NCBI GenBank assembly: GCA_964016885.1
Contig: OZ024741.1
Location: 133,238,001 to 133,302,000, forward strand
Direction of reading: 5' to 3'
Origin: Eledone cirrhosa
Lineage: Eukaryota
Length of the DNA stretch: 64,000 nt
In this document: positions 1,031-64,000 of the stretch, piece after piece
Layout: each line of letters opens with the position of its first letter
Position numbering within the stretch: the stretch's first letter is position 1
Program-made: the position numbers and the translations under genes
Notes under the pieces: model-generated
Database searches by the model: none
The model's input: only the letters and a program-made list of their open reading frames with translations
What the model was told of the DNA's origin: nothing

Positions 1031-2052
1031 TATATATATATATGAAGGCACATGGCTTAGTGGTTAGAGCATTGGGCTAGCAATCAAAATATATATACTT
1101 AAAGAATAAAGAGTAACATGGTTGGCTGTACAATAAGGGCTTTATTTAAAGTACTGACAATTGTTTCGTTGATCATGCGAGTCTAGAGTTTGCTAATCGC
1201 TTGAGGTTGCGTCAATCGATCTCCAATACATTATTTACCTCTGGTCAACACAGATTACGACGCAGAGTACTCACAACCTCTAACTGGATTACCTATAACG
1301 ATAACTTGTTATCCCATATATATATATATATATATAAAAGGAAGTACAGAATAATCGAAGCTCTGGCTGCAGCAAAGCTAACAAATACAATCAGGGTGTG
1401 CAGCTAAGCACTCAATAAGGAATTTTACCTTAGAGTTATAACATTACGTTTAGACAGCTTTGCAAATTGAAGACAGCGACCGATAGGCGAGCCGTAGTGA
1501 CCAAAGCAACGAAAAAACTGACTCAGGAAAAATATGACAAACGAGGACCATCGCGTTTATATTATACAATATCTCCGCTAGGTTTCTGTAAATCCGAAAT
1601 CAACAAAATCCACTTGCAGAGACCTGCATATTAACGGCTGAGCAGCCTAATTTGCATATCGAGTGAGTTAGTCGGCCGGGCGCACCGAAAACAAAAAATG
1701 GAAAAAATGAAACGAAATTTCATTTCTCACTCTTAGTACGGCTGTTACTTAAATATAAGTATGTATACGTACATACATACATATATGTATACAGACGTAC
1801 ATAAGTATGTATATATGTATGTATATATATACATACTTCTGTACGTCTGTGTACATATATGTATGTACGTATACATACTTATATTTAAGTAACAGCCGTA
1901 CTAAGAGTGAGAAATTAAATTTCATTTCATTTTTTCCATTTATCGTTTTCGGCCGAATAACTCACTTGATATGCAAATTAGGCTGCTCAGCCGTTAATAT
2001 GCATAAGGAAAGTATATACTTTCAGACGTTCAATCATCTGGTAGGAAGGTAT

Positions 2053-2095
2053 ACGATGCTGCCGATAGCTAATAAGCTTGAAACTAGTACATCGT
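2053..2095 (+). ncRNA. Minimal type I hammerhead ribozyme (core variant CUGCCGA, probably impaired)
   Basis: acgatg-CTGCCGA-tAGCTaataAGCTt-GAAA-CtaG-TA-catcgt: 6-bp stem I, 4-bp stem II, palindromic ACTAGT mini stem III, GUA cleavage triplet. Confidence 0.7.
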
Positions 2096-2195
2096 TCCTT
2101 TGTCAGTGTTGAACAAATGGGAAACGATGGTTGCTAAACACTGTACGGCTTAATTCGGGCTGTTTGTTTACAAACAAACCGAGCATTATAATAAA

Positions 2196-3331
2196 ATAGC
2201 TGACGTACGCAGCTTCGTTCGAGTAAACAGATGATAAGAGAAGAGAGGTAAAAGAGAAAATGACTGTATTGGATATTTGTCTGGTTACAGTATGAGGCGT
2301 GTCCGTGGTGTCTGTGTGATATAGAAAACAGTAAAAAAAAAATCTTCCGGATATACCAGATTCTTCGTTGTACCGTTTAAGCATAGTATATGAACAATTC
2401 TAGGTGCTCCCACCTAGAATAGTGACCTCTAGAAGAAGGTTCATCTTCTGCCTCACTGTAAAACGTGTATCATTGCATAGACGTGGTTGTTCCACGTTTC
2501 TCAAAAGGATGATGGAAGTTCCAATCTTTTATATTATATGTAGATATAGATATAGATAATTAATATAAAAGATGATGCTCAGCCAGTTCGTCTTCAACCA
2601 TCACAGCACGCCATCGCTGCTTGGCTCCAGTGTTTCGTTGGCGTTGTTCAGCCAGCTCCTCTTCATTCATGGCGGCACGTCTTCGCCTCTGAAGTTTGGC
2701 GTTCCGATGGCGCTGTTCGGCCCGTTTTTCTTCATTCCTGGCTGCACGCCGTCGCCGCTGTAGTTCACTGTTTGGTAAAGTCGAATTGCTTTTATTATCA
2801 GTATTCATTTCGAGCAATTGTCAAAAAATGACACAATAATAAATATATAAGATGTCCGTCAATGTAAAAAAAGGTCCCTATTTACTCCCTTCACAACTCT
2901 GTGTATGTTAGACCGACAGACAGGCACACAAACAGATAAACTGCGTCGTGATTGTGGAACACCCTACGTACACACACATACACGCATGGAAACGCGCACA
3001 CGCATGAACACTTACACACGCACCAGTGCACTTACACACACTTACACACTCACACATGTTGATAGTTTTTACTTTCTGTGAAATGCTGCACGCACGCTCA
3101 CACACATAAACATACGCGCACGTACATACACACGCACACATGGTAATAGTTACAGCGTTAACTTTGCCTCTCTGTTTCTTACTCTCCCCTCTCACTCCCT
3201 CATTCGCATTATGCGTATTAATTTAAGTTTGGCGTCGTTGAGGTGGGTGGAGTCTTTTGAAACCTATGAACCAATGATTATCGGGAATTATGACACACGG
3301 AATACTGACGTTGTTGAAATTAATATATAGA
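2196..3331 (-). mobile_element. Non-autonomous Helitron deletion derivative
   Basis: 5' TC...3' CTAT (canonical CTAG) inserted between A and T with no TSD (empty site visible at 63415/63416). Carries a PIF1-helicase remnant 2528-2400 (KIGTSIILLRNVEQPRLCNDTRFTV...LEVTIL) and 23-aa STPR-like repeats (ORF 2560..2817). Confidence 0.85.
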
Positions 3332-3721
3332 TGTTCGGTAAACCCATACGTACATATATATATGTGTCCATGTATGTATATATATACATACTACTGTATG
3401 TCTGTATACATATATGTATGTACGTATACATACTTATATTTAAGTAACAGCCGTACTAAGAGTGAGAAATGAAATTTCGTTTCATTTTTTCCATATATAT
3501 ATATATATATATAAAACAATGATAGTGAGTAAAATCGAAGTTGCAGCTGCTACTAACATCTTTCAAAAACAATGCTCAGAAGCTGGCACAAGCACTCAAT
3601 AAATTATACCACAGAGCAATAAACATACGTTAAAGGTGTGACAAATTGAAAATTGCAGCCGGGTAAAAAAAACTGCCACAAAAGCCACCACAAGAACGAA
3701 AATAGAAACAGGATATATATA

Positions 3722-23332: not shown

Positions 23333-26300
23333 GTAAGTACTATTTTCTTTTTATCAATAATAATACTTACCGTATATACTCGAATATAAGCCGAGGTAGG
23401 TAAAAAACACATTGTTTAGATGGCATGGTTTTGAAATTCTCATGAGTGGAGAATATATTTATGAAGTTTTAATATTTTGATATTTAAAAATATTTTAAGT
23501 GTTGTTTAGAGAATAGTTTTTGTTTCACAATTCCATTACGTAATATTGACCTCCAAAGTGAAACCTATGTAATATTGACCTCCAAAGCGAAAATATTTTA
23601 GCGCCTCATCCCATTTACATAGAATTTTGAAGTTGGTGAAAATCAGCAATATATTGACGGCCAACCCCCACCCCTTCCCATTTTACCATCAAATATTTTG
23701 TCACATTTCTCGGTTTGTATACGAGTATATACAGTATTTTACAAAATTCCATACATCTGACTGTTGTTCTTGTGTTGATGAAATAGTCCTCAGTTAGTTC
23801 CATTTCCATCACAGTTTAACCGTCTTTTAGTTCACCATCTTATTTTTAAAGAATCATTTTATATGAATTTTCATGAGAAATATCCATGCTTCTGCATGCC
23901 TTACCCACAAGTGATTTTGAACATTATACTGCAATTTAATAGTGCTACTATTGCCTACAATGGTGAATTGCTCTTTGGGAGTTAAATGTCTTGGCCACAA
24001 ACACATTACTGTTGATGACAGGATATGAAACATCAACTTCTTGGTTTGATGTTTGATATACTATCTACTTAACCACACTGATGATTAAGGGTGTGAAACA
24101 TTAACCTCTTGGCTGGGATTGAACTAGTAAACTGCAGATGAATGACAACTATTCAAAATGTGGTTTTACAAAACCAGAAAAATAATGTTAACAATTAAGT
24201 ATTTTATCCTATTATATAACTAGTTTAAAGTATTTAGACATAATTACTTTTCATTTTGTTTTTATTTTGTTTCACTTTTTAAGTAAAAGAATAAAACTGA
24301 TTGTGCAGTAACCTTGTGATGTGACAATGTTCTATAGTTATTGTTTCAGTAGGTCTATCTCATTCATTTGATGAGATGTTCATTATATATAATGTTGGTG
24401 TGTGTCTGTATCCCTGTGTGTTGGATGAGGCAACTAAAAGGATTAACACCAGGAAGGGAATTCTGGCCATAAAACATTACCTCAAAAAGAACCCTATCAG
24501 AAAGTCTACAAAGCTAACCCTTGCTTTAGCAAGGAAAAATGACCTTAAAACGGAAAAGATAAAGCAGAAGAGAATGAAATGTATGGGTCAGAGTATTCGT
24601 CAGTATTAGGAGATAGTGACTATGTTGTGTAGGAACTATCAGATGGATACATAAAAAGGGGTAGAAAGAAAAGAAATTACATTGAAAGATTGCTGGAAGA
24701 TACCAGAGAGGACAGCACAGGAGAGCTCAGAACACTGATGATGGATAGAGCTTTGGAGAGCAGGTGTAAAGACATATATACATATGCCATGTGTTGCATG
24801 GCTAGAATGAAAATCAGTGCTGTGAAAACTGAGACACTCATCCTCTCAAGGAAGCCTGCACTGTGAACTCTACATGTGAATGGGGTTCCACTGAAGCATA
24901 TGGAGAAGTTCAAGTATCTCAGGGCCATGTTCATGAGTGATGGAAAGCAGAAGAAGGGAGGTAGGTGTAACAGCCAAACTCGCTATCTTCAATTCAGTAT
25001 TCATGCCAACCCTTACCTATGGCCATGAAGTTTGGGTAATGACCGAAAGAATATGATTGCGAATACATGTGGCTGAAATGGGGTTCCTCTAGAGCGTCTT
25101 TGGAATAACATTACTTGATATAGTGTGAAGCTCTACCTACCATTTCTGACTAGGATACTATGGTTGGGCGTGCTTCCTAACGCCAACCACTTTGCAGAGT
25201 GTACTGAGTGTGTTTTACTGTAACCATCACTAAAGAGGTTTTGTTTTTTTGTCCTTGATATAACAGAAGAGTCCTCTCTGCCCTTTCTAACTCCAACCAG
25301 TTTTCAGGGTGTAGGGGATGCATTTTATTGTGACACCAGTACTAACCTAGATTACCCATCAAATGCCAACCACTTGAGGGGGCGGGAGTCATATACAGGT
25401 AAACCAATATGTATAATTAATCTATCTGATGTCTGTGTTGTTGCTTACTGACTGTTTATCACTAACTAATTTGTATTTTTATTTTACAATTCTAAGGCTC
25501 AACAAACTGCTTCTGTCAACAACCATGCTATACAGTACCCCGGACATTTTGATAGTGGCATATCACAGGCTGAACATGGTCACTTGTACCCAACCTTGGG
25601 AGATTATATGGGTCTAGCACTGACTCCTGAAATGGTTCAGAATATTGCACCAGCAGATAAACAAGTTGCTGTGAGTCAAGCTTATAGTGGTCAGATGCAA
25701 GTGGCTCCAATAACTGGTAACAATACAGGTTTGATGAGAGCTGAGATAAAACAAGGTATCCGAGAAGTTGTGCTGTGCAAAGATGAACATGGAAAGATTG
25801 GATTGCGTCTGAGACATGTGAACAATGTAAGTTGTTTTAAATATACTTACTACTTCAATATGTTGTGTGGTTCTGTATGTGTTACCTCTCACACAATCTC
25901 TGAGATTTCATTTTACTTTTGAAGTTTAATTCTTGAGAGAAAGTCCTGGACTTCACAGTCTGTGAATAGTTATTTGTTTATTATTTTGCAACAATAAAGT
26001 GCACCCAGTCCACTCAGCAATGTGATAGTGCTGGTGCCATGAAAAAACATATCTAGTACACCCTATCAGATGGTTAGTGTTACAACAGGCATTCAACCGT
26101 AGAAACCATATCAGATATGGAACATATGAGTAAGATGAGGTTGCTCTGACTTGTCTGGTCTCAAACTGTGACAACCCCTCCAGCATAAAAACAATGATGA
26201 TGATGATGAATTAAGTTTTTGTGTATTGCTTGAATAACCAGTGTGGATACTGTTGAGTCAAGAATTCCAATTAGTATTTTACAACTGTTTAAAGTCCAAC

Positions 26301-49692: not shown

Positions 49693-53385
<3,693 letters not shown>

Positions 53386-62857: not shown

Positions 62858-62967
<110 letters not shown>

Positions 62968-63025
62968 GTATATATATATATGTATATACATATATATATA
63001 CATATATATACATATATATATATAC

Positions 63026-63073
<48 letters not shown>

Positions 63074-63110
63074 GTAAATATATATATATATATGAATGTA
63101 TATATATGTA

Positions 63111-63210
<100 letters not shown>

Positions 63211-63245
63211 CACATATATATACATACATATATATATGTATATAT

Positions 63246-63673
63246 ATAAACGGAAAAAATGAAACGAAATTTCATTTCCCACTCTTAGTACGGCTGTTAC
63301 TTAAATATAAGTATGTACACGTACATACATATATGTATACGGGACGTACTGTAGTATGTATATATATATACATACATGCACACATATATATATGTACGTA
63401 TGGATTCACCGAACATTTATTATAATGCTCGGTGTGTTTGTAAACAAACATCCCATATCAAGCCGTAGTGTCTAGCAACCATCGTTGCTCGTTTGTTCAA
63501 CACTGACAAAGGAACGCTGTACAAGTTTCAAGCTTATTAGCTATCGTCAGCAACATATACCTTCCTGCCAGATTGTTGAACGTAAATACTTACCTTATGC
63601 ATATTAACGGTTGAGTAGCCCAATTTGCATATCGAGTGGTTTAATCGCCCGGGTGCACCGAAAACGATAAACG
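63246..63673 (-). mobile_element. ~421-bp hammerhead-bearing retrozyme/Penelope-like monomer in (TA)n
   Basis: Uninterrupted copy with 7-nt terminal redundancy ATAAACG (63246-63252, 63667-63673); no ORF; TA microsatellite on both sides. Confidence 0.72.
63514..63556 (-). ncRNA. Minimal type I hammerhead ribozyme with intact catalytic core
   Basis: Minus strand atgttg-CTGACGA-tAGCTaataAGCTt-GAAA-CttG-TA-cagcgt: canonical CUGANGA and GAAA, GUA triplet, 6-bp stem I with two G-U pairs. Confidence 0.78.
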
Positions 63674-63779
63674 ATTTATTTACATATATATTGTATATAT
63701 GTATCTATATATTTGTATATATATATGTATATATGTATATATATATATGTATATATATATATGTATATATACGTGTATA

Positions 63780-63864
<85 letters not shown>

Positions 63865-64000
63865 GTATATATATATATGTATATATATATATATGTATAT
63901 ATATATATGTATATATATATATATGTATATATATATATGTATATATATATACATATATATATATATATGTATATATATATACATATATATATATATATGT

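Follow-up and report, generated by a model that had tools for sequence, protein, structure and literature searches.

A dispersed 421-nt hammerhead retrozyme family in Eledone cirrhosa carries the integration signature of Penelope-like elements

Features of the window

The window, meaning the whole 64,000-nt stretch of DNA analysed here (Eledone cirrhosa, assembly GCA_964016885.1, contig OZ024741.1, positions 133,238,001 to 133,302,000), contains an exon of a syntenin-like PDZ protein at 25500–25823 on the plus strand (best named match from Argonauta, 60% identity, with five other proteins higher at 66–75%) and, at 49693–50847 on the minus strand, what we take from its translation to be an alpha-tubulin coding exon. 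Near its right-hand end lies one 421-nt retrozyme unit on the minus strand (63251–63671, 37% GC), flanked by (TA)n tracts at 62859–63248 (3' end of the unit) and 63684–64000 (5' side), which bears out the original prediction of a non-coding monomer between TA tracts. The same period of 421 nt is given by a joint from 63670 to 63250 in contigs of one sample, the source of all variant frequencies and joints quoted for this copy. The heptamer ATAAACG is present at both 63246–63252 and 63667–63673, but what had been described as a terminal redundancy is in fact a remnant of the unit before it, whose final 7 nt are left at 63667–63673 (minus strand), and thus denotes a partial tandem. A tail of ~52 nt (63251–63304, minus strand) lies between a short 3' end near 63305 (unit position ~369), at which contigs have loose ends, and a long 3' end at 63251 (position 421). 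The same strand carries ATGCAAAT at 63623–63630, an octamer-like motif and candidate promoter element that is also present in the distant family Z described below, as well as a TATA-like box at 63583–63588, which is TATATA in the family and TATTTA in this copy.

The predicted layout of a minus-strand type I hammerhead (63514–63556) could be read letter by letter from 63556 downwards as ATGTTG (63556–63551), the core CTGACGA (63550–63544), U, AGCT-AATA-AGCT (63542–63531), U, GAAA (63529–63526), CTTG, TA and CAGCGT (63519–63514). The first and last of these elements pair as stem I (6 bp), AGCT-AATA-AGCT forms a 4-bp stem II with a U.U at its base, helix III is palindromic with 1–2 bp, and the predicted cut falls after GUA, between 63520 and 63519; a long helix in the predicted fold extends stem I around the ribozyme (63495–63581, minus strand). 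The motif is of type I as proposed, but the label 'minimal' does not hold, as the min-HHR of PMC4209133 has a helix II of 7–8 bp, a helix I of 4–5 bp and no helix III; by the account given there it is rather a canonical metazoan type I ribozyme. Axolotl ribozymes offer parallels, HHR_Amex2 for this basal U.U of stem II and HHR_Amex1 for the palindromic tetraloop stem III (PMC7229834). The Rfam scan that had been suggested as a check returned no hammerhead in the window, either at gathering score or at E ≤ 10, and only TA-hairpin miRNA models scored, far below cut-off; the hammerhead call therefore rests on motif, fold and covariation.

The stem III palindrome of this copy (63521–63526, minus strand) is ACTTGT, a variant which accounts for > 99% of contig depth at 63523, while the family form ACTAGT is found in 48 of 60 sampled units. 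Its predicted self-duplex has an energy of +0.3 kcal/mol, compared to -4.8 kcal/mol with the family palindrome, and the change is thus predicted to abolish the stem III self-duplex.

The second insertion in the window

A second copy had been described as a single element spanning 1822–3494 with the same ribozyme. We find instead a composite, made up of an inverted arm on the minus strand (1625 to approximately 1830) which itself spans a head-to-tail junction, a plus-strand segment in which the 3' part of one unit abuts the 5' part of its successor (1822–2195), an unrelated insertion of ~1130 bp that splits the copy (2196–3326), and a plus-strand 3' part which runs to the long end and borders there on (TA)n (3327–3494). 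The head-to-tail junction was found as predicted, near 1937–1943, and the stem I pairing acgatg:catcgt was confirmed, but the hammerhead (2053–2095, plus strand) is not the same, its core being CTGCCGA with an A6>C change at 2062. Each copy in the window therefore has a ribozyme-damaging change (ACTTGT in one, CTGCCGA in the other), and both are likely passive. Another TA-flanked repeat adjoins the second copy on both sides (1336–1625 and 3513–3710), and related pieces occur at loci L017 and L213.

Copy number, arrays and related families

A 27-nt core of the unit has 11,229 exact matches in the 3.0 Gb genome compared to none for its reversed control, and its abundance is thus not due to chance; a second 24-mer of the unit has 15,688. 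The former count is a lower bound, since the exact 27-nt core occurs in merely 27 of the 60 sampled units. Copies range from ~97% down to ~72% identity, fall into at least three subfamilies and form tandem arrays of two to eight or more units. A long array of an old subfamily (G000:C3:12272007-12294753, partly in L246) has at least 38 matches over at least 22 kb, with ~500-nt spacing. A GTAAGT resembling a splice donor was dismissed as it is absent from the older subfamilies.

The family fits a described class, the non-LTR retrozymes, which are non-coding, head-to-tail units of 150–450 bp with GC below 50%: units are 421 nt long with 37% GC, the longest ATG-initiated ORF in an eight-unit array is 60 aa, all 11 hammerhead core letters are intact in 46 of 60 units sampled irrespective of the core, and the monomer RNA is predicted to be self-paired (see below). 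The suggestion of a possibly undescribed family thus survives for the 421-nt family itself, which was not found in print, but not for the retrozyme class. Literature on hammerheads and Penelope elements in octopus and other cephalopods, surveyed mostly from listings, yielded neither a cephalopod retrozyme nor the 421-nt family, and the text passages and supplement available for the O. vulgaris repeat annotation (PMC13282606) contain no mention of ribozymes or retrozymes. Abundant ribozyme repeats such as these are probably an unannotated class in cephalopod genomes.

A relaxed search with the core pattern gave 297 matches, mainly mutated copies of the 421-nt family. A distant relative, family Z (E 2e-11; L312:2745-3090, minus strand, and L348-L372), is a further tandem retrozyme devoid of ORFs, in which ATGCAAAT/ATGCAGAT motifs recur. 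Judged by eye, its hammerhead has a GUC site and a stem III that is stable at 3 bp, and so may cleave as a monomer. A third related unit, in L351 ~330 nt downstream of the start of the family Z match, has a ATGCGAAT motif and a hammerhead with an ACATGT palindrome, and is an intermediate between the 421-nt family and family Z. Both family Z and the third family carry a hammerhead along with a TATA-like box and the octamer-like motif; families Z and Y have short units too.

Conservation of the ribozyme and of the RNA fold

The ribozyme core is conserved above background across copies: in the 60 units sampled irrespective of the core, core letters differ at 3.6% compared to 6.1% elsewhere (p 0.01). 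Between the three subfamilies none of the 11 core columns differs, compared to 38 of 226 columns overall; taken alone this invariance is not significant (hammerhead vs rest, p 0.18). The core is also retained in the distant family Z, and one stem I pair covaries, being U.G, A-U or G.U in 96, 38 and 13 insertions respectively and unpaired or gapped in only 8. The fold of the whole unit has a z score of -8.9, a prediction which includes a self-complementary TA-rich segment. Seven compensatory pairs, including long-range helices to the tail, were identified among 10 sequences, a number reached by 1 of 500 shuffles, where the shuffling takes no account of relatedness and the sequences tested had themselves served to derive the structure.

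Insertion anatomy and pairing of 3' ends

Insertions were dissected in two sets, the first comprising 65 in order along contig 1 (70 loci, with 5 duplicates dropped) and the full set comprising 165 (170, less 5 duplicates or adjacent second blocks). In the contig 1 set two sites, unit positions ~369 and ~421, account for 78 of 98 3' ends and define an optional 3' tail between two fixed ends. A TA run lies within 30 nt of 78 of the 98 3' ends, compared to 8.6% of background 30-mers, in keeping with the TA-associated family that had been predicted, while plain 5' ends are scattered and have TA at only 12 of 32. Both 3' start sites have 3–5 nt of TA-like microhomology. A comparison with empty sites, directed at whether TA tracts precede an insertion or expand upon it, gave homologs for 3 of 169 and 13 of 170 flank pairs, mostly other TA-bound repeats.

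In addition to partial tandems, many insertions contain an inverted, 5'-truncated arm, so that two arms lie head-to-head (33 of 65 in the contig 1 set, 83 of 165 in the full set). One end lies elsewhere in 16 of the 83, and both ends can be classified in the remaining 67, among which 61 combine one short with one long end, five are long+long and a single one is short+short (p 6e-13); excluding best-hit loci leaves 40 of 42 as short+long. The same combination is found in all 11 classifiable head-to-head insertions of family Z (among 14), and in all six (among 9) and all four (among 6) of families A and B, two families encoding reverse transcriptase (RT) and GIY-YIG domains; for these three families the regular expressions that assigned ends to classes were written once the sequences had been seen. 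That the tail of Penelope-like elements (PLEs) is often at one end only was already stated in PMC8557442; the presence of one tail per insertion is quantified here as a near-strict short/long pairing. Literature on PLEs and twin priming, again mostly from listings, yielded no description of paired end use. From this pairing in four families follows a specific expectation that can be put to the in vitro PLE system already established. Thousands of copies bear the complete PLE integration signature, which supports mobilisation by PLEs independently of sequence homology.

Penelope-like elements in the same genome

Young elements with RT and C-terminal GIY-YIG domains joined by a CxxxxCxxC linker, which PMC8557442 ties to the Neptune/Nematis clades and to TA targeting, are present in the same genome, with ORFs of up to 1096 codons. 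There are 10,596 GIY-YIG candidates, and RT+GIY-YIG PLEs with hammerhead motifs are abundant, which together with the published PLE architecture of the insertions upholds the proposed link to PLEs. Exact matches to pLTR motifs number 11,632 for family A and 6,005 for family B. Family A (L248-L277; ORFs in L082 and L083) is an abundant Neptune-type PLE in which the pLTR hammerhead has a U3-A8 core variant, one described in PMC4209133. Family B (L278-L307; ORFs in L084, L085 and L089) is also of Neptune type, with a small hammerhead that has a U.U at the base of stem II, and a CAGTT motif downstream of TATAAAA is where its 5' ends accumulate.

The search for an autonomous Penelope sharing the retrozyme sequence, proposed as a follow-up, identified no such helper among 80 GIY-YIG loci (of 150 listed, representing at least 7 families): a profile search of the 80 and BLASTN on 40 returned only nested retrozyme copies. 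Family A provides the best match to the tail, a weak similarity (p 0.017, from one of 6 tests) in which the register is not kept. The 421-nt element itself has no RT+GIY-YIG ORF, its longest ATG-initiated ORF being that of 60 aa in the eight-unit array.

The RNA template

Propagation through self-cleaved or circular RNA had been proposed for the family. There is no pile-up of 5' ends, even at the predicted cut site, and a cut linear monomer is therefore an unlikely template, whereas a circular template is compatible with the data. Among young copies 1 of 67 5' ends lies at the cut site compared to 1.9 expected at random, a test which is weakened because most retrozyme loci were picked for an intact core, depleting first-lap 5' ends near the cut. 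Only the young subset was used for 5' ends, as multi-reference end mapping produced artefact piles at 79 and 223. The predicted cut site is spanned by 258 unit pieces, and 121 of 248 arms cross a unit junction.

The autonomous elements behave differently. In families A and B, 18 of 30 and 17 of 30 arms respectively stop in a 12-nt window ~30–40 nt after TATAAAA, while for the retrozyme (182 arms) no 15-nt window has a stop rate above 7.5%, the value at 140–154 being 1.6%. This contrast suggests that the autonomous elements are copied from uncut, promoter-started RNA and that the retrozyme template lacks a defined 5' end, and it renders the idea of a circular template, put forward as early as 2014 (PMC4209133), testable.

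Rare variants are shared within insertions, with ratios of 18:155 for units and 12:150 for arms compared to 19:1621 for random pairs (~7-fold for arms), and minor alleles are concordant in 16 of 38 laps and 15 of 33 arms, many of the discordant arm sites being CpG. A single template for both arms of one insertion is favoured. Long arrays are nearly identical internally (0.3% in L242 and L243), while others are mosaic, combining two subfamilies (L215), two haplotypes (L244) or a mixture of haplotypes or subfamilies (L105), and cannot have come from one monomer circle. Overall we lean slightly towards a circle as the template, with an uncut multimer as a serious candidate not far behind.

Proposed mobilisation by Penelope-like elements and alternative explanations

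We propose that the 421-nt repeat is probably a retrozyme that is not autonomous and relies for its copying on the RT/GIY-YIG protein of a PLE, likely of Neptune type, with both strands of a TA tract cut and priming at two fixed internal sites of an uncut or circular RNA. Tandem loci would be transcribed, possibly from an internal octamer/TATA promoter; neighbouring hammerheads would pair via the ACUAGU palindrome and cleave as dimers, and the monomers may be ligated into circles. The 2026 preprint (bioRxiv 10.64898/2026.07.22.740005) speaks against this scheme in that, of the Xenopus retrozyme dimers tried in vitro, 8 of 9 stayed uncleaved. The PLE protein, probably as a dimer, would bind the structured 3' part of the RNA and nick both strands of the TA tract, so that one target strand would prime at the UAUAU loop (position ~369) and the other at the UUUAU junction (position ~421). 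Continued reverse transcription past the unit junction would generate partial tandems, and joining of the two cDNAs head-to-head would complete the insertion.

A broader and more tentative reading, which we regard as possible but would not expect to hold in full, is that PLE integration generally proceeds by paired dual priming (one protein dimer and one RNA, always with one site per strand), and that cephalopod retrozymes, lacking an ORF but having their own octamer/TATA promoter, exploit it via covalently closed circles; the retrozymes alone would then lack a defined 5' end because their template is a closed circle. In that case the genomic copies would be a natural record of circular RNA as a retrotransposition template.

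It is also conceivable, and to our minds similarly tentative, that PLEs mobilise the family from uncut, linear read-through transcripts of tandem loci, the hammerhead being kept as a structure or cleaving at another stage, with no role for circles. The mixed arrays L215 and L244 are readily explained in this way, ribozyme mutants insert normally in vitro (PMC11167929), and the autonomous families are copied through their own hammerheads to a promoter-defined end. However the retrozyme has no promoter-defined stop comparable to theirs, the arrays L242 and L243 are near-identical inside, and both the core and the dimer palindrome have been kept across subfamilies. A small cluster of 5' ends at 116–125, ~30 nt after the TATA-like box, would suit a read-through transcript, but with 8 of 67 ends it falls short of significance (scan p 0.36) and was rejected as a transcription start.

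The unit could alternatively be the truncated terminal repeat (pLTR) of an unsampled autonomous PLE, given that most PLE copies are 5'-truncated, that the 80 GIY-YIG loci examined are drawn from many thousand, and that 21 of 57 Xenopus families have pLTR homology (bioRxiv 10.64898/2026.07.22.740005). We consider this improbable, since what lies upstream of a unit in arrays of up to eight or more is another unit rather than an ORF, the eight-unit array encodes no ATG-initiated ORF above 60 aa, BLAST maps of 170 insertions have no evident common upstream sequence, and the related families Z and Y are likewise short. The idea that a LINE or recombination at the DNA level has spread a satellite or SINE-like repeat, in which the hammerhead motif arose by chance or is dead, is most improbable: the lack of an Rfam match, the damaging changes in both window copies and the possible growth of some arrays by unequal crossover would be in its favour, but copies are dispersed, have fixed 3' and variable 5' ends, inverted arms, the short/long rule common to PLEs and no poly(A) tail, stem I covaries, and the core is retained in family Z.

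Relationship to known elements

The enzyme that moves animal retrozymes and the use of circles as template are both treated as open questions in the passages of the literature compared here. The closest known systems are the metazoan non-LTR retrozymes of mussel, coral and axolotl (Cervera and de la Pena 2020, PMC7229834), which share non-coding units of 150–450 bp with low GC, one type I hammerhead per unit, tandem arrays and highly self-paired RNA. Their circular RNA and cleavage have been demonstrated, whereas the 421-nt family is known from genome sequence. The latter differs in its cephalopod host (the passages available contain no mention of octopus or cephalopods) and in that most copies are dispersed, TA-flanked insertions of 1–2 units which have inverted arms and 3' ends fixed at two sites, an arrangement not described in those passages.

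That retrozymes are non-autonomous PLE derivatives moved by PLEs is also the conclusion of Li, Clavereau and Pollet 2026 (bioRxiv 10.64898/2026.07.22.740005), whose evidence is co-occurrence and pLTR homology in vertebrates; among their 35 species insects and a coral are the sole invertebrates. For the 421-nt family, unlike those, no pLTR homology was found and the evidence is the integration signature. Partial tandems, an inverted 5'-truncated arm, a bias to TA microsatellites and a hammerhead near the 3' end are shared with Neptune-type PLEs (Craig et al. 2021, PMC8557442; Cervera and de la Pena 2014, PMC4209133), from which the family differs in having no ORF, a tail of ~52 nt rather than 30–40 and no promoter-defined 5' end.

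The anole Poseidon element PAc (Frangieh et al. 2024, PMC11167929) offers a biochemical parallel, as its protein, a predicted dimer, cuts and extends both strands of an AT-rich target in vitro and starts at two internal RNA sites bracketing the tail; ribozyme cleavage is dispensable for insertion. For PAc there was no strand difference in start site and no target homology, in contrast to the TA-like microhomology of both start sites here, and pairing within an insertion is not treated in the main text. What this abundant new family of a known class adds is the quantified PLE integration signature together with the template contrast.

An snRNA-type promoter was also considered for the retrozyme and rejected, as inspection by eye of the 300 nt upstream of 10 U1 genes revealed no motif in common. 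The U1 snRNA genes (L171-L180) do share upstream motifs among themselves by eye, TTAYYTCCCTTG near -250 and AAATCAGT near -50, which are unlike those of the retrozyme, and many of these genes sit in 2.67-kb tandem arrays.
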